A stretch of 64,000 nucleotides of DNA from a phage. The stretch is taken from sequence record PZ019086.1; one strand, 5' to 3'. Under the pieces are notes generated by a model. It ran no database searches. It had not been told where the DNA came from and was given only the letters and a program-made list of their open reading frames with translations. Numbering within the stretch: the stretch's first letter is position 1; every line of letters starts with the position of its first letter. The translations under genes were made by a program, and so were the position numbers. This document shows positions 8,676 to 16,159 of this stretch, piece by piece.

Positions 8676-9065
8676 TTAACGATTAAAATCAGCAGCAATT
8701 GTTTCAGCAACAATTTGAGCAGCAACAATTAGACGTTCATCTGCATTACCGCAATAATCATCTTCAAGGCGCTCACCACATGAAGTCATAATAAATTTGG
8801 CACCAGCATTTAGAGATTCTGCTGTATGTTTGCGCATCAGTTCAATCCATTTATTACTTACTTCACGATCGATAGCTTCATAATACGCATGACGAGCAGG
8901 TGCAGATTTAATTTTGCTCTGAATAACTTCCATCGCATTATCAGAAAGAGACAAAACCCATGCTCGACGAATTTTATTTTGGTTTTGTGGATTTGATTCA
9001 GAACGCACGTGTTTTGGCTGAATATCTTTTACATCAACAGTATAATTCACCGTAATTTTAGTCAT
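8676..9065 (-). CDS. rpbA: RNA polymerase binding protein RpbA
   Basis: 129 aa, position after 45 as in T4. Confidence 0.75.
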
Positions 9066-9074
9066 AATACACCT

Positions 9075-9266
9075 TTAGTCATAATAATCAGTAACAGTCC
9101 AAGCTTCATTTCTGTTGGACATTATTTTCGTATATTCTGATTTAAATGCATTCTTAAGCATAGATTCAGTAACTATATGCTCTTCATTAGAAAAATTATT
9201 TCTCAGAATATATCGTTTTATTTCAGGAATAGTTAATAGATGCTGTCCAGTTGAATATTCTGCCAC
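9075..9266 (-). CDS. Hypothetical small protein (45.2 position), apparent GTG start
   Basis: 63-aa ORF with GGAGG RBS before GTG; syntenic with T4 45.2. Confidence 0.55.
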   Translation of the reverse strand: MAEYSTGQHLLTIPEIKRYILRNNFSNEEHIVTESMLKNAFKSEYTKIMSNRNEAWTVTDYYD

Positions 9267-9276
9267 AGTTCCTCCG

Positions 9277-9284
9277 TATAAATA
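9277..9284 (+). promoter_or_regulatory. T4 late promoter TATAAATA upstream of the plus-strand HNH gene
   Basis: Exact TATAAATA about 34 nt upstream of the ATG at 9318; approximate. Confidence 0.5.
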
Positions 9285-9317
9285 TGTTTATCACTCGCTG
9301 TATCAAAAGGATATGTT

Positions 9318-10034
9318 ATGAATTATAAACTAATTTATGAAAAGTTAATCTCTAATGCTAAATCTCGAAAACTTGATTGCTATACTGAATCTCATCACAT
9401 TATACCACGCTGTTTAAATGGTAGCGATGATGCTTCAAACTTAGTAGATTTAACACCAGAAGAGCACTATGTAGCTCATCAACTTTTAGTAAAAATTTAT
9501 CCTTCTGAACCAAAATTAGTCTATGCTGCTAACATGATGACAGTTTCTACGAAATACGCTAAACGTAATAATAAAACTTTCGGCTGGATTCGTCGTAAAC
9601 TCTGGGAAATAGAAAAGAATAAAGAGTTCTCCCAAGAGACACGAAAGAAAATGTCCGATGCAGTAGCTAATAAAGCAAGACTAACTTGTCCACATTGCGG
9701 TAAGTCTGGATTAAGCGGGAATATGAATCGATGGCATTTTGATAACTGCCCAAATCACCCCAATCCTAAAGTTAGACCGCCAATGTCTAAAGAACACAGA
9801 AATAATATCTCAAACGGGCTTAAAGCAATCGTTCTTGAAGAAACAACCTGCGAATTCTGCGGAATGATAGGCAAGAAATGCGTTATCGCAGCGCATAGAA
9901 ATTTCTGCAAGAAAAATCCAAATGGACGCAAGAAAACTGAAAAGACTGGTACTTGCGTCCATTGTGGTAAAGTTACCACTTTCGGAAATTTATCAAGATG
10001 GCATAATGATAATTGTAAATATAAACCTAGCTAA
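9318..10034 (+). CDS. HNH-family homing-endonuclease-like protein with C-terminal zinc-finger repeats (mob-like)
   Basis: 238 aa; HNH motif ESHHIIPRCLNGSDDASNLVDLTPEEHYVAH; three CxxCG...WH..NC repeats; encoded opposite to surrounding genes between 45.2 and 46. Confidence 0.75.
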   Translation: MNYKLIYEKLISNAKSRKLDCYTESHHIIPRCLNGSDDASNLVDLTPEEHYVAHQLLVKIYPSEPKLVYAANMMTVSTKYAKRNNKTFGWIRRKLWEIEKNKEFSQETRKKMSDAVANKARLTCPHCGKSGLSGNMNRWHFDNCPNHPNPKVRPPMSKEHRNNISNGLKAIVLEETTCEFCGMIGKKCVIAAHRNFCKKNPNGRKKTEKTGTCVHCGKVTTFGNLSRWHNDNCKYKPS

Positions 10035-11715
10035 TCTTAGCTAAACTAAATCTACCAACTTTTTCCATTTGAATGTGCTGACCATATTCCTGTGGGTCAT
10101 GGTCTTTATGCGAAATTATGAAGAAGTTGGTATCCTTCAAACCATCTAAAATTTTAGCCACATTTTTAATACCTTCAGCATCAAATGCACCGTCATATAC
10201 TTCATCAAGAAATAAACAACTTATTTTAACACCTGAAACTTTTTCAGCAATATCACGCCAAGTAAATAAAAGAGCAATATCAATTCGCGCTTTTTCACCT
10301 TGACTAAATGAAGCATAACTAAAATCTTCACGACCACGGGATTTAATTGTCTCATTAAATTCTTCATCTAATGTAAACACATAATCCGCTTCCATTATTT
10401 TAAGATAATGGTTAATCTGCTTATTAAATAATGGAATGTACTTTTTAATAATAGCACCTTTAATACCAGAATCTTTGAGCATATCAGTCAAAATTCCTCT
10501 ATGGTATTTTTCCATTACTAAATTAGTTTTTGTCTTAACAATTTTATCAAGTTCTTCTTGAAGCAGTGCTATTTCATCAGCATGATCAATAAACTCAGAT
10601 GATGCTTTTTCTATAGCCGCTTTAACCTTTTTAGCTTTATCTACCGTCGTGATTAGAGATTGCTTTTTATTGCGAATATCATTCGCCAACGTCTGCTGGG
10701 TTTTAATATTATCTCGGTATTCATCAACAAGAACTTTTAAATTATCACGATGTGTTGAAAGCTGTTCAAATGAATGCGTGCATTCAGAAACTTTATCTTT
10801 AATTTTAGAAACAACTTTATCACCGGAACTTAATTGTGACAAACAGGTTGGACATAATCCACCTTCGTGATACATATTAATGACTTTATTATACGAGTCA
10901 ATTTTTGATTTAATTAAAAATGCTTCTTGACCGATTTTATCAAATGCATCAGTCGGGTCTTCATCCAAAACAATATTAACTAATCTTTCATTAGCTTCTT
11001 CTATTTCCGATTTTAACGTTCTAGCTTCTTTTGCCAAATCATCATACATATTCTGCAGACGAGTAAGGTTATCACCAGTTAATTTTTTCTGGCGTTCAAC
11101 GTTATCATTATATATTTTAATTTGTTGGATAATACTATCTTTTTTAACATCAAGCACTTGGTTTTGTGAATTTAATTCACGTATTAGTGCTTTATTAAGC
11201 TTATCCATTTCAGCTAATGTTCCTACCTCAAGCAGGTCTTCCACAAGCTTTCTTCGCGCAGGGGTCGACAAACCCATGAAAGGGGTATACCCTGCTGTAC
11301 CAAGGACAACAATCTGCTTGAAACTGGCATATGACATTCCGATAAGCTGTTCAAATTCTGCTTGGAAATCTTTACTGCTGGCAGATTCATTAAGACGTGT
11401 ACCGTTAACGGTGATTTCGAAAACGTTTGGTTTTTGTCCTCTTTTGATATAGTACTTTTTCTCATCATATTCCATCCACAGTTCAACTAAAAGTTCTTTC
11501 TTATTTGTGCTGTTTATTAATTGGCCTTTCTTTACATCACGGAATGGCTTGCCAAAAAGCCCAAATGTGATGGCTTCTAACATAGTAGACTTACCACCAC
11601 CATTTCGCCCAGTAATAAGAGTTTTTTGAACCTTATCTAATTGAATGTCAACTCCATTTTGACCAACTGACATTATATTTTTATATTTTACTCTATTAAG
11701 TTTAAATGATTTCAT
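10027..11715 (-). CDS. 46: Recombination endonuclease subunit (Rad50/SbcC-like ATPase)
   Basis: 562 aa; Walker A GRNGGGKST, long coiled coil with CPTC zinc hook, C-terminal signature/Walker B. Confidence 0.9.
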   Translation of the reverse strand: MKSFKLNRVKYKNIMSVGQNGVDIQLDKVQKTLITGRNGGGKSTMLEAITFGLFGKPFRDVKKGQLINSTNKKELLVELWMEYDEKKYYIKRGQKPNVFEITVNGTRLNESASSKDFQAEFEQLIGMSYASFKQIVVLGTAGYTPFMGLSTPARRKLVEDLLEVGTLAEMDKLNKALIRELNSQNQVLDVKKDSIIQQIKIYNDNVERQKKLTGDNLTRLQNMYDDLAKEARTLKSEIEEANERLVNIVLDEDPTDAFDKIGQEAFLIKSKIDSYNKVINMYHEGGLCPTCLSQLSSGDKVVSKIKDKVSECTHSFEQLSTHRDNLKVLVDEYRDNIKTQQTLANDIRNKKQSLITTVDKAKKVKAAIEKASSEFIDHADEIALLQEELDKIVKTKTNLVMEKYHRGILTDMLKDSGIKGAIIKKYIPLFNKQINHYLKIMEADYVFTLDEEFNETIKSRGREDFSYASFSQGEKARIDIALLFTWRDIAEKVSGVKISCLFLDEVYDGAFDAEGIKNVAKILDGLKDTNFFIISHKDHDPQEYGQHIQMEKVGRFSLAKIS

Positions 11716-11730
11716 TTTGTATCCAATTGT

Positions 11731-12585
11731 TCACAATGAAGAAAATTCTTTAACTAAAGCCTGTAATGAAGCCTCTATTGGATATCCATTCTTAACTAAC
11801 ATTTTCCTAAACATCACATGTTTAGGACGATTATATGATATCCACAATTCATACAATTTATCTTTATTATCCCAATGATAGCCTTTTCGTCGAGATGCTA
11901 TATGAGCTTTTCTAATCTCCGGATTTTTCCAACTAGCGGCTACTGAATTTGATATAGCTATTTTATATTCAGGTTTTGATAAAGCAACACGAACAGCCTT
12001 TTGGTGTTTAATTTTATTTTCTTCGTTATTAAACCATTCCCTTGAAGCCATTGAAATTTTTTGTTTTGTTTTAAAATTATTTAATCTTTCTTTGTTATCT
12101 TTCCTATTTTTTGCTACTGAAAAGTATTTTAATGCTCTTTCTCTAGCAGCATTTCTATTTTGTGGATTTGAATAATATTGTTGAAGCCTTTTTGATATTG
12201 TGTCACTTACATCTTGTTTTATAAAACTATATTCAGCAGCTATTAAATCAACTTCGGCTAAAGATAAATTTTTATATGTTTTTCCTGACATCATTCTATT
12301 TAAAGCATTTAGCATTTTTCCATTTTTACCTTTTGCTAATAAGAAATGTGCTTTAAAATGATTAAAATGACTTAAATTAACTAAATTCCATGTAGATTTT
12401 AAATATTCAGGAAATATTGATTTAGGAAGCACATGGTGTGCTTCCGTTTTACCTGGAGTTTTAACAGTTGAATTCATAGAAATAAAATTAATGTAAGACT
12501 TGGCGTCTTCTTCACTCAACGCTAATTTTTCAACTAATTCCTTTATTAAAAATTCATCATTAATGTCAAGTTTAAAATTCTTCAC
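11731..12585 (-). CDS. HNH-family endonuclease-like protein (second mob-like gene), apparent GTG start
   Basis: 284 aa; HNH motif EAHHVLPKS...NLVNLSHFNHFKAH; basic repetitive C-terminal region; inserted immediately upstream of 46. Confidence 0.65.
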   Translation of the reverse strand: MKNFKLDINDEFLIKELVEKLALSEEDAKSYINFISMNSTVKTPGKTEAHHVLPKSIFPEYLKSTWNLVNLSHFNHFKAHFLLAKGKNGKMLNALNRMMSGKTYKNLSLAEVDLIAAEYSFIKQDVSDTISKRLQQYYSNPQNRNAARERALKYFSVAKNRKDNKERLNNFKTKQKISMASREWFNNEENKIKHQKAVRVALSKPEYKIAISNSVAASWKNPEIRKAHIASRRKGYHWDNKDKLYELWISYNRPKHVMFRKMLVKNGYPIEASLQALVKEFSSL

Positions 12586-12845
12586 AAAAGATTCCTTTTA
12601 ATGTATCTTTTAGACCATTCTATCATATCATCATAATCTAAAAAGTATTCATCAAATTCAGCCATGCAAACAACACCTTGTGCTGCTTTTGATGTGATAT
12701 AAATTATTCCAACATATCTAGAATCTTCTTCGGTGTAATCAATATTTGCTACGAATTCATCGTTAATGTCAAATGTCGAAAACTTCACAGTATGCATCCT
12801 TAATACAAGATACAGCCATATCTTGTAATGATTTAGGTGTGTCAT
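12582..12845 (-). CDS. Hypothetical protein (46.1/46.2 region); start uncertain
   Basis: 87-aa ORF overlapping the next ORF by 77 nt; real start may be internal. Confidence 0.4.
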   Translation of the reverse strand: MTHLNHYKIWLYLVLRMHTVKFSTFDINDEFVANIDYTEEDSRYVGIIYITSKAAQGVVCMAEFDEYFLDYDDMIEWSKRYIKRNLL

Positions 12846-13032
12846 TATCTAAAATGTTGAAGTTAAAAGATACAGCCCAGTCAGTGCAGACCGTGACCTT
12901 TTTAATACAATTATCTTCAACCTCTAGCGGTTCAAACCAATATTCAATAATTTCTTTATGCCCAATATCATCTTTTACTTCGCATTCAAAATGCTGACTC
13001 ATCATAACATTTTTAAATTCATCAAAAGTCAT
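12769..13032 (-). CDS. Hypothetical protein (46.2 position)
   Basis: 87-aa ORF with ATG start overlapping the stop of 47. Confidence 0.5.
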   Translation of the reverse strand: MTFDEFKNVMMSQHFECEVKDDIGHKEIIEYWFEPLEVEDNCIKKVTVCTDWAVSFNFNILDNDTPKSLQDMAVSCIKDAYCEVFDI

Positions 13033-14048
13033 TGTGTTGCCTCTACATATAACTGATTTGCATATTGAATAAGTGCTTCGCGGTCAGAATCAGTGATGTC
13101 TGGAATTGCATTAATGTATTCTTCCATCAACGTCTGAAGAGATTGAACTTCAACTTCTTCACTATCATCTGACTCGACAGAGTTATCAATCTTTGACACA
13201 ACTCGTAATGAATGCACAACTTTTTCTAGTTCAGATTCGAACTTCGTTAGATTTTTGTCTACTTCAGTTACTATAACACGCACTGATAGATTTGTAAAAT
13301 CTTTATAGTCAATTTTTCCCTTAAATGGATATTGAATTCGACGATGCCAGGTAGTGTTGTTTGGAATAAATTCCATTCGTTCTGTTTCTGTATCAAACAT
13401 CCAGAACCCGCGAGGGTCATTCTCGTCACCTGCAGTTAATGTCCATGGTGTCCCAATATATTTGACGTTAGCAGCCTCAGAGATAGTATGGAAGTGACCA
13501 GACCACACCTCTTTATAAGTCTTAAGGAAATCAGGTTCAAGACCGTGAGATTTCATTCCTTTATAAAAATAAAATCCATTCAGTTCCCAGTGACCAACAC
13601 AAAAAGAAGCAGATGAAGTTTTGATGTGTTCAAGAATTTCACCAGTATTTTCTTCACACATCCAAGGAATTAAATCAATCAAACATCCGTCAAAATCTAC
13701 TGTAGTAGGCTTATCATATACTTTAACATTAGGATATTTAGCCAGAAGCTCAGTAGAAGCATTTGGATGCATTACATTTTTGTAGTGGAGATCGTGATTT
13801 CCTACAATAGTATGTAATGTGATTCCAGCACCATCAAGCATTTGAACTATTTCACGGGCAAACTCCATAGTTTTATGCGTGATCGCTTTTCGTACATCAA
13901 AAATATCACCGTATTGAATCCATACCGTAATTCCATTTTTCTTAGAATATTCTATCGCTTGCTTAATTCCATCAATTTGAATACCGCGAATCCACTCATC
14001 ATCAGCTTTAACACCTAAATGCCAATCACCTAAATTTAAAATTTTCAT
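13029..14048 (-). CDS. 47: Recombination endonuclease subunit (Mre11/SbcD-like phosphoesterase)
   Basis: 339 aa; calcineurin-like motifs (DWHLG, GNHD, GHFH). Confidence 0.9.
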   Translation of the reverse strand: MKILNLGDWHLGVKADDEWIRGIQIDGIKQAIEYSKKNGITVWIQYGDIFDVRKAITHKTMEFAREIVQMLDGAGITLHTIVGNHDLHYKNVMHPNASTELLAKYPNVKVYDKPTTVDFDGCLIDLIPWMCEENTGEILEHIKTSSASFCVGHWELNGFYFYKGMKSHGLEPDFLKTYKEVWSGHFHTISEAANVKYIGTPWTLTAGDENDPRGFWMFDTETERMEFIPNNTTWHRRIQYPFKGKIDYKDFTNLSVRVIVTEVDKNLTKFESELEKVVHSLRVVSKIDNSVESDDSEEVEVQSLQTLMEEYINAIPDITDSDREALIQYANQLYVEATQ

Positions 14049-14208: not shown

Positions 14209-14226
14209 AAAGGGCCGAAGCCCTTT
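14209..14226 (-). terminator. UUCG-loop hairpin at the alpha-gt stop
   Basis: aaagggccgaagcccttt; approximate. Confidence 0.5.
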
Positions 14227-15427
14227 ATTTTGTAATAATGTCAAACTGTTCTTTAAAGCAGAAGCTTGAATCTTGATGCTGATACAAAAATTCATAAGCT
14301 TTTTCGCGTTCACGGTCATAAAGAGCTCGGTCAGATGACAGTTCTTTAATACGCTCAAATGTTGATTCCATGTCATTTTCATCAAACCAAACGATACCGC
14401 TATCGTGTGAAATTAACGGAGTATTATCAACACGGAATTTTAAATTTTCGCCAGTAGATTTCCAAAATACCGGAATTGTTCCACATGCACCAAGCTCGAG
14501 ATGAGTGTATTCTAAAGAACGCTGTAGATATTTTTTGTCCAACTTACTCAGCTGATAACCAAATCCGGATTTACTCATGCGTTCAAGCATTTCGCTATTT
14601 ACATAACGGTCGAGAATTTGCGTTGGCAAATTAGGAGCAATTTTAATTTGGTCTACTTGATGAAGACGATAATACTCGTATGGAATTCCTTTTTCTTTAA
14701 TAGGAATGAACGCTGGAGAACGTTCCAGACCTTCCATAATAGTACTTAGTCCTGCAGGTTTAAGATGTTTTTCGTGAAAATCAAACATCTGATAAAAACC
14801 TTTCCATGTAGTCGTACGACCAATCCAACGGTTGATATTCATGTTAATTTCAGAAACATCTTTCCAGTAGGTTGATCGAACCTTCGCAATATCCATAGGA
14901 GGCTGAAAGTTATATACGGTCGGTGCTTCTTCAATATCATCAAACAGAGAAACAGTTTCCGGATACCATTCTTTCATCAAAACTTTATTAAAGTCACCAT
15001 TATCAGAATGGCTAAAAATAACATCAGCTCGACGAACAGTTTCTTCTAATCCCAAATTTCGACGCAAAGAAAGAGAAGAATGGTCATGCTGATAAACTAC
15101 AACACGAACCGAAGGTTTAATGTTATCAATAATTTTTTTATAGTTATTAATTGTGTCTTCTTCGACTGAAGTAGCAGGAACTGAATTGATAACTAGAATA
15201 TCACAATCATTTACCAGCTTAAGCGTTTTATCGTATTCTTTTGCCAATAAAACCGGAATTGAAAATGATTTATAATCATGCGCGCAATTACGAGTAAATG
15301 ATTTATCTTTAGCATAAACCAAAGTTACTTCATGACCATTTTTAATAAACCAATCACGCTGCTCAAGAGAAAATTTAGTTACACCGCAACCTTCAAGACC
15401 TCGAGCCATAAAAATACATACTTTCAT
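14225..15427 (-). CDS. agt: DNA alpha-glucosyltransferase
   Basis: 400 aa; N-terminus MKVCIFMARGLEGCGVTKFSLEQRDWFIKNGHEVTLVYAKDKSF matches T4 AGT closely from memory. Confidence 0.9.
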   Translation of the reverse strand: MKVCIFMARGLEGCGVTKFSLEQRDWFIKNGHEVTLVYAKDKSFTRNCAHDYKSFSIPVLLAKEYDKTLKLVNDCDILVINSVPATSVEEDTINNYKKIIDNIKPSVRVVVYQHDHSSLSLRRNLGLEETVRRADVIFSHSDNGDFNKVLMKEWYPETVSLFDDIEEAPTVYNFQPPMDIAKVRSTYWKDVSEINMNINRWIGRTTTWKGFYQMFDFHEKHLKPAGLSTIMEGLERSPAFIPIKEKGIPYEYYRLHQVDQIKIAPNLPTQILDRYVNSEMLERMSKSGFGYQLSKLDKKYLQRSLEYTHLELGACGTIPVFWKSTGENLKFRVDNTPLISHDSGIVWFDENDMESTFERIKELSSDRALYDREREKAYEFLYQHQDSSFCFKEQFDIITK

Positions 15428-15476
15428 TTAATATCCTCATTGTTTTGGTTTATTTTACCAAAAATTTATAAAGCAA

Positions 15477-15498
15477 TATAGGAGCCGAAGCTCCTATC
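15477..15498 (-). terminator. UUCG-loop hairpin
   Basis: ataggagccgaagctcctat; approximate. Confidence 0.45.
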
Positions 15499-15685
15499 CG
15501 CATAATACGCCATACAAAGGCTCGTTAGAGCTTCTAAATTTTATGCGCTTATATGTTATAGTTCCTTCTGCTTTAGCTTTATCGTGAGCCTCTTTAAAGC
15601 GTCTCATCATTTCTACTTTAGAGGAACGAATTTTGTTATAATCTATTTCACAAGTCTGGCGTTCATCTTTCACAGTTGCCACCAT
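15494..15685 (-). CDS. Hypothetical small protein
   Basis: 63-aa ORF in minus-strand operon between alpha-gt and 55. Confidence 0.4.
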   Translation of the reverse strand: MVATVKDERQTCEIDYNKIRSSKVEMMRRFKEAHDKAKAEGTITYKRIKFRSSNEPLYGVLCG

Positions 15686-15876
15686 TTTTTGACTTGATAA
15701 GAATCAACCCACACTTTCATGTTAGGGTCTGCTCTTACAATAGGAGGATTAACTTCTTTAATTGAACTATCATGGTATTCTTTTTCAGAAATTTTCACAC
15801 AAAGATGACCATTCAAAGATTCAGTAAATCCTGCATTAATTTTAAGACGCTTGAATTTTACGTGTGTAAGCATCAA
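15670..15876 (-). CDS. Hypothetical small protein
   Basis: 68-aa ORF, operon context. Confidence 0.4.
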   Translation of the reverse strand: MMLTHVKFKRLKINAGFTESLNGHLCVKISEKEYHDSSIKEVNPPIVRADPNMKVWVDSYQVKKWWQL

Positions 15877-16159
15877 TCATATCCTCAATCTGCGATCTAG
15901 TAGTCTTCCAAAGAATACTAATGAGTTCATCGTTATATGGCTGTTTTAGAATATCCCGACTTTTCTTGATAGCATATTCGTATTGAGCAAAATTATTGTT
16001 TTCAGCTGCAATCTGAGCGTGCTTATAAAGACGGTTCAGTTCGCGTTTATTTTTAGACAATAACTTATTTGCTTTTCTTTCTGCTTCAAGACGGTTCTTT
16101 TCTTCAATAGAAGAAATAAGCTTTTCCACTTCATCATTAATTTCGGGTTTATCAGTCAT
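15842..16159 (-). CDS. Hypothetical coiled-coil protein
   Basis: 105-aa ORF, operon context. Confidence 0.5.
   Translation of the reverse strand: MTDKPEINDEVEKLISSIEEKNRLEAERKANKLLSKNKRELNRLYKHAQIAAENNNFAQYEYAIKKSRDILKQPYNDELISILWKTTRSQIEDMIDAYTRKIQAS

Follow-up and report, generated by a model that had tools for sequence, protein, structure and literature searches.

The gene described here seems, judging from its sequence, to be most similar in full-length architecture to T4 MobD (NP_049710), a predicted free-standing HNH homing endonuclease, and to the MobC-type gene of Yersinia phage PST, which lies between nrdD and nrdG. To our knowledge, no cleavage site has been mapped for MobC or MobD. 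Few Mob enzymes have a mapped site, and MobE was the only one that we found. Encoded upstream of nrdB, MobE nicks the 5' region of nrdB (nt 122-126) in phages lacking the homing endonuclease gene (HEG), and polymorphisms in its target region distinguish carrier from non-carrier phages (PMC2790892). Lacking its own promoter, MobE relies on upstream transcription, and a deletion of its residues 33-62 abolishes nicking (Wilson & Edgell 2009, PMC2790892). In intron HNH endonucleases of the I-HmuI and I-TevIII type, a similar HNH motif precedes DNA-binding modules that are of an extended helical or NUMOD type.

In this study we analysed a stretch of 64,000 nt of phage DNA (record PZ019086.1; called the window in the following), which is a Tequatrovirus (T-even) genome. 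A sequence-only reading had pointed to a 284-aa ORF on the minus strand, placed between 46.1/46.2 and gene 46. The ORF is present at exactly these positions (Table 1), with a GTG start codon and a TGA stop codon (11731-11733), and it sits in the 47-46.2-46.1-46 operon. Its placement is confirmed by ORFs and Pfam matches: on one side lie 46.1 (DUF5487, 12582..12845; E 4.6e-48) and 46.2 (T4_Y03C; E 1.1e-43), on the other side gene 46. We consider it probable, on the sequence comparisons presented here, that the ORF is a free-standing HEG of the T4 Mob family which would home at the 5' end of gene 46. Like MobD and PST MobC it is free-standing and wedged between conserved genes, located in neither an intron nor an intein, and it leaves gene 46 uninterrupted. 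I-HmuI-type genes, in contrast, are intron-encoded: here gene 46 is continuous, and a search with Rfam from 9000 to 13300 detected no group I intron or other RNA (a RAGATH-8 hit scored 21.5 bits, compared with a gathering score of 86.7). Nor did the protein match I-HmuI directly in sequence or fold.

Table 1. Positions of the features discussed in the text, in coordinates of the window.
Feature	Position	Strand	Basis or remark
Predicted Mob-like HNH homing endonuclease gene, free-standing	11731..12585	-	ORF, phrog_655, T6 homologue
Predicted N-terminal catalytic domain, residues 1-105	12271..12585	-	helical hairpin 10-38, then beta-beta-alpha-metal core
Basic all-helical C-terminal region, residues 106-284	11734..12270	-	weak NUMOD3-like repeats
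Captured native gene 46 start, GTG AAG AAT TTT AAA CTT (MKNFKL)	12568..12585	-	same 18-mer starts T4 gene 46
870-bp segment absent from T4-type genomes	11698..12567	-	junctions by base-level comparison with T4
Replacement gene 46 start, ATG AAA TCA TTT AAA CTT (MKSFKL)	11698..11715	-	read directly from the sequence
Gene 46 (SbcC/Rad50-like recombination nuclease subunit), 562 aa	10027..11715	-	ORF; annotated in T6, T2, T4, RB32
Endonuclease-linked haplotype block, gene 46 coding nt +18..+64	11652..11698	-	candidate recognition or immunity region

Apart from the unusual GTG start, nothing speaks for a chance or mis-called reading frame in 870 bp of non-coding filler, and we ruled this explanation out as having a negligible probability. 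The frame runs over 284 codons in DNA of low GC content (28.1%, compared with 33.1% in gene 46 and 33-35% in the surroundings), profiles match it down to 8e-45, it has thousands of homologs and its structural model is confident. Synonymous differences between gene copies outnumber non-synonymous ones (7:2, 13:3 and 8:3), and because the substitutions are mostly synonymous the ORF appears to be under purifying selection.

The best profile in the PHROG search was phrog_655 'homing endonuclease' (8e-45), followed by phrog_12434 'HNH endonuclease' (4.2e-15). The former is also the best profile for T4 MobB, for PST MobC and for orthologs from Mosigvirus and Gelderlandvirus, and MobD shares it as well. 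In tblastn comparisons the protein was 29.6% identical to T4 MobD (residues 47-281, E 9e-11) and 36% identical to PST mobC (E 4e-22); the pairwise E value with T4 MobB was 1e-8. A word-indexed protein search returned just 7 relatives, and an exhaustive profile search was needed to reveal the large family behind them, with about 16,000 cluster representatives matching the family profile at E<=1e-3.

The HNH motif suggested by the sequence-only reading is borne out: both quoted stretches are present, EAHHVLPKS at residues 48-56 and NLVNLSHFNHFKAH at residues 67-80. According to our alignment H50, H51, N67, H76 and H80 do not vary among 61 distant homologs and occur also in MobB, MobD and MobE, and the counterparts of N67, H76 and H80 fall into the stretch of MobE (residues 33-62) whose deletion abolishes nicking. 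The structural model (pLDDT 91.7) has the beta-beta-alpha layout of solved HNH nucleases, with strands at 47-51 and 68-72 and a helix at 73-84. H50-H51, invariant in a set of 68 homologs as well, close the first strand, as fits the general-base histidine, and N67, H76 and H80 supply the asparagine and the metal-ligand histidines at the second strand and the helix. We predict H50/H51, N67, H76 and H80 to be the catalytic residues.

In a Pfam search of the protein, HNH (PF01844) and related models remained unmatched at E<=1. PF01844 was matched by just 2 of the 61 homologs, and the Pfam HNH model covers the Mob-like subfamily poorly. When Pfam, NCBIfam and PDB sequences were searched, neither the single protein nor a profile of 61 sequences produced a meaningful match; the top matches were low-complexity helical proteins, which we dismissed, and a PDB search with the full-length predicted model found nothing. 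The missing Pfam match would also be expected of a catalytically dead HNH-like DNA-binding protein with a regulatory or architectural role instead of nuclease activity. Such a protein might equally have a large and basic C-terminal half, as is the case here. Directly ahead of the helix histidine our protein also has Asn (NH), at a position occupied by Asp or Glu (DH/EH) in paralogs. However, the NH variant is common to the Mosigvirus and Gelderlandvirus orthologs, every residue that is invariant across the 61 homologs and in the experimentally studied MobE has been kept, and a sporadic indel distribution, as described below, is typically seen in HEGs that are, or recently were, active. We therefore regard a dead enzyme as very improbable. 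PHROG profiles, Mob homology, invariant residues and the model all argue for an HNH fold, with the Pfam HNH model silent.

The C-terminal region had been described as basic and repetitive. Its basic character is clear (pI 10.05, net charge +18), but repeats are only weakly developed: the motif S...(Y/W).NP(Q/E).R is clear at residues 131 and 212 and degenerate near 178. This region is modelled as stacked helices (109-283, pLDDT >90) and is presumed to be the DNA-binding part of the protein that determines its specificity. At E<=1 the protein itself matched neither NUMOD3 (PF07460) nor the I-HmuI NUMOD-like domain in Pfam; of the 61 homologs, 27 match NUMOD3 in the equivalent region (best E 1.8e-35) and 6 the I-HmuI NUMOD-like domain. 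In the alignment a terminal three-helix module (about residues 236-284) is common to our protein and T4 MobD.

With MobD and PST MobC the protein has the N-terminal core HH...N...H...H and the helical middle region in common, but the C-terminal module YHW.N.D.LY..WI..NRPK...F......GYP recurs in MobD and not in PST MobC, whose sequence diverges in this part. Identity is just 30-36%, and MobD and MobC lie at the nrdC or nrdD/nrdG regions instead of gene 46. MobE is similar in that its HNH core residues align with those of our protein and that both genes are situated immediately upstream of a conserved gene, yet MobE, at just 141 aa, has no counterpart of the long C-terminal region. Compared with MobB, MobD and MobE, our protein has an extra helical hairpin of about 25 residues at its N-terminus.

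The junctions of the insert show how it is connected to gene 46. The first six codons of the endonuclease gene are those with which gene 46 starts in T4, and as in T4 the GTG shares bases with the stop codon of 46.1 (GTGA); from 12567 onward the window departs from the T4 sequence. Start codon, ribosome-binding site, first six codons and 46.1-stop overlap of the endonuclease gene are gene 46's native ones. In the 870-bp segment the remaining endonuclease ORF is followed by a 15-nt spacer and then by a replacement gene 46 start. In HEG-less genomes the flanks match as two pieces spanning 1431 bp, compared with 2301 bp. In the spacer (11716-11730) a Shine-Dalgarno-like GGA triplet precedes the replacement start. 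Captured and replacement start form a direct repeat with 13 of 18 positions identical and an exact 9-nt core, TTTAAACTT; since only 13 of the 18 positions agree, a repeat finder did not report an 18-nt flanking repeat. The replacement start is identical in T6, T2 and N2, and its codons 1-5 (ATG AAA TCA TTT AAA) are those of the native gene 46 start in the HEG-less Mosigvirus RB69. The gp46 protein of the window differs from that of T4 by N3S and I22V. The earlier claim of a mobile HNH gene inserted directly upstream of gene 46 is correct with regard to the insert, but not with regard to a strictly upstream position, as the insertion point lies inside the first codons of gene 46.

A promoter and terminator scan found 29 promoter-like sites, not above chance (26.2 expected in shuffled sequence). 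The late-promoter sequence TATAAATA was absent in a scan at the endonuclease gene, and one MotA-box match at 12310 had no properly spaced -10 element. Together with the overlap of the endonuclease start codon and the 46.1 stop codon, the sequence scan is consistent with a dependence of the gene on upstream transcription. With no promoter signal above chance and a start that suggests translational coupling, the arrangement may resemble that of the promoterless MobE. Inside the MobE gene a terminator hairpin lies 27 nt downstream of the AUG; no equivalent is evident in our gene. A 9-bp hairpin at 12425-12445 was considered as such a terminator and rejected: it was scored on the antisense strand (the coding strand has no U-tract), it lies within the TEAHHVLP codons, and it recurs in PST mobC but not in the orthologs of Mosigvirus and Gelderlandvirus, so that we treat it as a coincidence of codons.

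Among about 503 Tequatrovirus records with flanks at >=95% identity, 72 contain the insert, including T6, T2 and N2, in copies that are 99% identical. The remainder, T4 among them, lack exactly 870 bp. Universal conservation at this position, which would have spoken against a mobile gene, is hence not observed; the gene is an exact presence/absence polymorphism (~72 of ~500 Tequatrovirus records). Orthologs with 44-45% amino acid identity lie directly 5' of gene 46 in Mosigvirus and Gelderlandvirus, in Mosigvirus in 10 of about 155 records, and such sporadic but precise presence and absence, in Tequatrovirus and Mosigvirus alike, is a feature of Mob-type HEGs. At frequencies of 6-15% and with carriers 98-99% identical to each other, the element fits a recent spread, and equally well vertical inheritance in a clade with recombination of the flanks. 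T6 carries an intact copy. In T2 the gene is broken by a 2-bp deletion in an A-run and RB68 carries another decayed copy; these frameshifted and truncated copies show that the gene is dispensable.

It might be possible that this once-mobile HNH element no longer homes and has become resident, either because it benefits the phage, for example by keeping out related competitors, adjusting the translation of gene 46 or aiding gp46/gp47-dependent recombination, or because it is difficult to lose. An intact ORF under apparent purifying selection in about 70 genomes and a low, stable-looking frequency in two genera would agree with this. Moreover, imprecise loss would be lethal because the gene is interwoven with the signals by which an essential gene is translated, and published reviews mention that HEG nucleases are involved in exclusion between phages (PMC2993671). 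However, the decayed copies in T2 and RB68 show that phages can do without it, the catalytic residues are all kept, and exclusion and homing are not mutually exclusive. A discrete haplotype block replicated in a second genus, as presented in the following, is furthermore what repeated homing or immunity predicts. We consider a purely resident gene unlikely and continue with the homing endonuclease.

An IMG/VR scan yielded 7 loci, too few for population work, and we used BLAST identity bands on a phage collection instead. These bands separate three discrete haplotypes of gene 46. Haplotype A, the T4 type, is found without the HEG in about 68 records; A', which is A with two SNPs at +63/+64, accounts for all of the roughly 71-74 HEG-carrying records; haplotype B, the RB32 type, 13-14 positions away from T4, occurs only in HEG-less genomes (about 344-350 records). 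The HEG and haplotype B were never found together, the best match to a synthetic HEG/B junction being 91.2%. The differences between carriers and non-carriers are confined to nt +18..+64 of gene 46, while surrounding sites are shuffled. A base-by-base comparison across genera (two HEG-carrying and two HEG-less Mosigvirus genomes and one Gelderlandvirus), together with BLAST identity bands, showed that in Mosigvirus the same codons (12, 17, 19 and 21) separate carriers from most HEG-less genomes. As in Mob-type HEGs, carriers and non-carriers thus differ in sequence beside the insertion, in a block at +18..+64 with a parallel split in Mosigvirus.

Because the HEG is always linked to one +18..+64 haplotype, with an allele link of a similar kind in Mosigvirus, we predict from these sequences that the target of the endonuclease is probably situated within the first ~70 nt of gene 46. 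Linkage within Tequatrovirus alone is no proof of a target, since any insertion of single origin would be linked to a block 18-64 nt away. In favour of this prediction, MobE, also placed upstream, nicks the 5' region of its downstream gene nrdB. Comparison with the outgroups L010, Mosigvirus and Gelderlandvirus did not resolve whether A or B is the ancestral state. We lean towards the linked haplotype being a resistant variant and the common B haplotype the sensitive target, with a recognition site split by the insertion as the somewhat less favoured possibility. T4-type genomes would then bear the resistant haplotype without the HEG, either as former carriers or as products of short conversion tracts.

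By analogy to MobE, the following course of events might be envisaged. Having no promoter of its own, the endonuclease gene would rely on transcription of the operon, and its translation would be coupled to that of 46.1. During co-infection with a HEG-less relative the enzyme would nick or cut the first ~70 nt of the relative's gene 46, and the phage recombination machinery would repair the break with the HEG-carrying genome as template, by which the recipient would acquire the HEG together with the neighbouring +18..+64 block. The carrier would escape self-cutting by its resistant linked haplotype or by the splitting of the recognition site through the insertion.

More tentatively, and with less than an even chance of being right, one could propose that the mobile unit is a cassette of endonuclease gene, replacement gene 46 start and a ~46-nt 'immunising' block of gene 46, moving across Tevenvirinae genera and always to the 5' end of gene 46. 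Each genus would then comprise three classes of genomes: sensitive (B-type, YQNIMSVGGNP), carrier (A-type with HEG) and immune non-carrier (A-type without HEG). If this were true, the N-terminal coding sequence of T4 gene 46 would be the footprint of a past encounter with the element, T4 would be resistant to the T6 enzyme and most wild Tequatroviruses would be sensitive. Start capture, coupling and a diverged 18-nt duplicate would in that case represent a way for a HEG to enter an essential operon without polar damage.

The endonuclease gene as such is already known and of little weight in itself, a further Mob-like HNH homing endonuclease of a T-even phage. The T6, T2, RB68 and N2 records annotate it as HEG; the T6 copy (YP_010067209, 99% identical) is named 'homing endonuclease' in RefSeq and the Mosigvirus ortholog 'MobD-like'. 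Probably a 2010 survey of HEGs in T4-related phages had already included it (PMC2993671, Table 5). Our literature searches found no paper that names or tests the gene and no cleavage study. What we add is the takeover and replacement of the gene 46 start codon, the link to a haplotype at +18..+64, and orthologs in the same slot of two further genera. The practical value lies in a narrow, testable prediction of the target, for which natural alleles, candidate sensitive and candidate resistant ones, exist in T4, T6 and RB32-type phages.

The sequence-only reading had named the gene at 9318..10034 on the plus strand as another nuclease candidate, and this gene is real as well (phrog_655, 1.2e-68; weak Pfam HNH), so that two HNH genes flank gene 46 in the window. 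It corresponds to RB32ORF054w ('similar to mobB') and shares the PHROG and the HNH core with our endonuclease (pairwise E 1e-5). It is likewise sporadic (60 records) and linked to a diverged gene 46 block, but lies at the other end of gene 46, on the opposite strand, and its C-terminal CxxC zinc-binding motifs contrast with a protein that has no cysteine. As a caution, the divergence that T-even phages show at the 5' and the 3' end of gene 46 may reflect HEG traffic and not functional divergence of gp46. The two flanking genes are distinct elements, each distributed independently of the other: T6 and T2 carry only the endonuclease gene between 46.1 and 46, RB32 only the 9318..10034 type, and N2 and the window both.

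The 284-codon homing endonuclease gene (HEG) between 46.1 and gene 46 is clearly a coding sequence, since the copies in the window, T6 and N2 differ mainly by synonymous codon changes (synonymous:non-synonymous 7:2, 13:3 and 8:3) and a profile built from its protein matches a large set of homologs (4,046 cluster representatives at E<=1e-10, rising to about 16,000 at E<=1e-3). The sequence-only reading had proposed a 284-aa minus-strand ORF with an HNH motif and a basic, repetitive C-terminal region. We recovered the uninterrupted ORF and both quoted stretches of the motif: residues 48-56 read EAHHVLPKS and residues 67-80 read NLVNLSHFNHFKAH. As proposed, the C-terminal half (residues 106-284) is basic, with a pI of 10.05 and a net charge of +18, and weakly repetitive: S...(Y/W).NP(Q/E).R occurs at residues 131 and 212, and a degenerate copy lies near 178. 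The gene order is a-gt, 47, 46.2, 46.1, HEG, 46, a second HNH ORF on the other strand, 45.2, rpbA and 45, where 46.1 and 46.2, both upstream of the HEG, match Pfam DUF5487 (4.6e-48) and T4_Y03C (1.1e-43). The window DNA is 97-99% identical to Tequatrovirus genomes; GC content is 28.1% in the HEG versus 33.1% in gene 46 and 34.9% in the window.

We conclude that the HEG product belongs to the Mob family of HNH endonucleases and resembles MobD in architecture. Searches with the protein gave no HNH match in Pfam at E<=1, no match in NCBIfam and nothing meaningful among PDB sequences, either with the single protein or with a 61-sequence profile. Among PHROG profiles it matched phrog_655 'homing endonuclease' (8e-45) and phrog_12434 'HNH endonuclease' (4.2e-15); the former also ranks first for T4 MobB (4.5e-53), Yersinia phage PST MobC (5.3e-37) and the second HNH ORF (1.2e-68). 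Direct comparisons related the protein to PST mobC (36%, E 4e-22), T4 MobD (29.6% identity over residues 47-281, E 9e-11), T4 MobB (E 1e-8) and the second HNH ORF (E 1e-5), and its last ~50 residues align well to the MobD C-terminus. Y31, H50, H51, P54, N67, H76 and H80 are invariant across 61 aligned homologs whose identity is only 20-40%, and stay so once T4 MobB, MobD and MobE are aligned. Deletion of MobE residues 33-62 abolishes nicking in vivo (PMC2790892), and by alignment the counterparts of N67, H76 and H80 fall within this deletion. In confident AlphaFold models (pLDDT 93.5 full length, 91.7 for residues 1-105) H50/H51 end a beta strand (47-51), N67 precedes a second strand (68-72), the helix that comes next (73-84) bears H76 and H80 a single turn from each other, and the remainder is helical (helices 109-283). 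The region equivalent to the C-terminal part carries Pfam NUMOD3 in 27/61 homologs and an I-HmuI NUMOD-like domain in 6/61; the HEG protein itself stays below the Pfam threshold for both. It has no cysteines, in contrast to the many CxxC pairs of the neighbouring HNH protein. Homology, motif, fold, free-standing position, sporadic distribution and target-region polymorphism place the protein in the Mob-type HNH family, and it is predicted to bind DNA and to act as a nuclease.

The codons of the catalytic TEAHHVLP coincide exactly with an inverted repeat that has perfect 9-bp arms and a 3-nt loop (GGAAGCACA-CCA-TGTGCTTCC, window 12425-12445, about -14 kcal/mol). The stem also occurs in T6 and in the 36%-identical PST mobC paralog, with changes in the loop only. 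The orthologs in Mosigvirus and Gelderlandvirus lack it, and on the coding strand it is not followed by a U-tract. The hairpin is probably a codon coincidence, a regulatory role being conceivable.

The T6 (YP_010067209) and T2 copies bear the RefSeq label 'homing endonuclease'. A published census credits T2 with one 'other HNH' HEG and T6 with several (Petrov et al. 2010, PMC2993671, Table 5), and the T2 entry is probably the gene described here. Because it is annotated publicly and was probably counted in the census, we rate the HEG as already known; our literature search found no paper naming or testing it. What our analysis adds is a precise target prediction and a description of start-codon capture.

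In line with the insertion that had been proposed, the gene is not universally conserved at this position. With a 2.3-kb query from 47 to 46, the insert was found in 72/503 records at >=95% identity; the remaining records align in two pieces over 1431 bp instead of 2301 bp and therefore lack exactly 870 bp. Megablast with the HEG matched 81 phage records, 71 at >=80% gene coverage and 95-99+% identity; the other 10 (90-95% identity, <80% gene coverage) appear to be partial matches; the example inspected in detail, from Klebsiella phage Mexia, matches over 48 nt. Carriers include T6, T2, RB68, RB51, N2, SHFML-26 and EP01, and the gene is missing from T4, RB14, RB32, RB33, AR1 and PST. Some copies are decaying: the T2 copy is split into two ORFs (615-nt and 258-nt) by a 2-bp deletion in the A-run TCAAAACC at HEG nt 609-610, RB68 encodes a truncated 208-aa product, and the disrupted G2133 copy aligns as two pieces. 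Since Rfam revealed no intron or other RNA family in 9000-13300, the HEG is free-standing. One RAGATH-8 match inside the second HNH gene (9923-9961, plus strand) was dismissed as chance (21.5 bits versus a gathering threshold of 86.7, E 0.012).

The element lies inside the first codons of gene 46, having captured the host start and its coupling and supplied a substitute start, because the native 18-mer opens the HEG and a diverged copy restarts gene 46. In T4, gene 46 begins GTG AAG AAT TTT AAA CTT AAT AGA..., its GTG overlapping the 46.1 stop (GTGA). The endonuclease ORF opens with the captured 18-mer (MKNFKL-DINDEF...), T4 homology ends at 12567 and picks up again at 11706/11697, and a 15-nt spacer with a GGA triplet separates the endonuclease stop from the new ATG. 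Replacement and native starts agree at 13/18 positions, with an exact 9-nt core, TTTAAACTT. The first five substitute codons (ATG AAA TCA TTT AAA) equal the native gene 46 start of the HEG-less Mosigvirus RB69, which hints that the cassette was put together in another genus or has travelled through one. The number of promoter-like sites is no higher than chance predicts (29 versus 26.2 expected), no late-promoter box was found, and the single MotA-box match has no proper -10 element. By analogy to mobE, which lacks its own promoter and is transcribed together with nrdA (PMC2790892), the HEG is probably expressed from operon promoters.

Features of the HEG locus, its orthologs and the gene 46 classes
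Feature	Position	Strand	Description
HEG ORF	11731..12585	minus	284 codons uninterrupted, GTG start
Captured gene 46 start	12585..12568	minus	T4 18-mer, same ribosome-binding site, same 46.1 overlap
Replacement gene 46 start	11715..11698	minus	ATG AAA TCA TTT AAA CTT, giving MKSFKL-NRVKY...
T2 pseudogene	L002 (phage T2) 3716-4568		Deletion equivalent to window 11976-11977
Second HNH gene	9318-10034	plus	Weak Pfam HNH and NUMOD3; several CxxC pairs
Haplotype A	gene 46 +18..+64		T4 type, encodes ...RVKYKNIMSVGQNGID..., no HEG; about 68 records
Haplotype A'	gene 46 +18..+64		A plus two changes at +63/+64 (I22V), all carriers; about 71-74 records with HEG
Haplotype B	gene 46 +18..+64		13-14 differences vs T4, encodes ...RVRYQNIMSVGGNPID..., HEG-less only; about 344-350 records
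Ortholog, phiEC1 (Mosigvirus)	L013 2200-3075		5' of gene 46
Ortholog, pEK20 (Mosigvirus)	L015 2444-3304		Annotated 'MobD-like homing endonuclease'
Ortholog, F2 (Mosigvirus)			5' of gene 46
Ortholog, Melville (Gelderlandvirus)	L014 2489-3331		Directly follows gene 47; no 46.1 and 46.2
Mosigvirus class, RB69-type			No HEG; about 140-150 records
Mosigvirus class, phiEC1-type			With HEG; 10 records
Mosigvirus class, phiEC1-type			Apparently no HEG, native ATG start, judged by WFL6982; about 5-6 records

We compared 12 loci base by base, four with the gene (window, N2, T6, T2) and eight without (T4, RB32, six IMG/VR contigs). Beyond about 80 nt on either side, variable sites are shuffled among these genomes, the 60 nt in front of the start codon are identical in 12/12, and gene 46 +18..+64 falls into three discrete haplotypes with zero intermediates. 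Record counts for the whole phage collection were taken from BLAST identity bands. When the HEG 3' end was joined synthetically to a B-type gene 46, the best full-coverage match reached 91.2% and all such matches were A' genomes; the phage collection therefore contains no genome that combines the HEG with haplotype B.

Two other genera have orthologs with 44-45% amino acid identity (pairwise E 3e-77) immediately 5' of gene 46, their 3' ends overlapping the gene 46 start. In Mosigvirus the ortholog occurs in only 10 of about 155 records and takes the place of 46.1 instead of following it. Here, carriers (phiEC1, pEK20) and non-carriers (RB69, JS09) show 14 differences in the first 75 nt of gene 46 versus only 0-2 per 25 nt over the next ~625 nt. 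Codons 12 (CAA to AAA), 17 (GTA to GTT), 19 (GGR to CAA) and 21 (CCT to other) separate them, the same distinguishing set as in Tequatrovirus, and the three-class structure is seen again.

By analogy, intron-less homing of the MobE kind is the best-supported reading. The enzyme would be produced during co-infection and would nick or cut a HEG-less genome within the first ~70 nt of gene 46. With the carrier as donor, recombination-dependent repair would then transfer the element along with whatever lies between it and the break. Such homing would account for the exact indel and the decayed copies, for the association with gene 46 kept across genera, and for a strict linkage to the HEG that is confined to the block directly 3' of the insert. 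Much of this evidence would also be compatible with the main rival reading, in which the HEG is immobile now and kept for exclusion or another benefit, a situation that is not exclusive of homing. If homing does operate, the B-type might be the sensitive site and the A-type block resistant and obligatorily co-converted, HEG-less A-type genomes such as T4 then being former carriers or products of short conversion tracts. Alternatively, the uninterrupted A-type might be the target and B a resistant variant, the carrier being protected because the insertion, together with the five changes in the duplicated 18-mer, splits its site. We lean modestly towards a sensitive B-type, because MobE, SegF and SegG, whose carriers are protected by target polymorphisms, provide a precedent and because the B-type is the common majority state in two genera; an A-type target is only somewhat less probable.

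The proposal that two nucleases flank gene 46 holds for the window and N2, but the two elements are independent, T6 and T2 lacking the second HNH gene. The latter occurs in 60 phage records, for example RB32 ('similar to mobB') and N2. It converges on gene 46, overlapping its last 8 nt, and is linked to strong divergence of the last ~250 nt of gene 46 (10027-10300; 4-17 differences per 50 nt versus T4) and to a gp46 of 562 aa ending ...SLAKIS versus 560 aa ending ...FTVMV. T2 carries yet another variant over part of this 3' region. When window 14225-16159 was compared with the T4 locus (L003 21-815), mobB was seen directly upstream of a-gt in T4; this position holds small a-gt.2 to a-gt.5 ORFs in T6 and T2, and in the window small ORFs of matching sizes. 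It looks like another HEG presence/absence difference within the same 10 kb. Between rpbA and gene 45, N2, the closest record to window stretch 9000-10400, has an additional 888-nt ORF (L011 6222-7109), which may be another mobile insert; the gap at this place in the window, between 8620 and 8676, measures only 55 nt.
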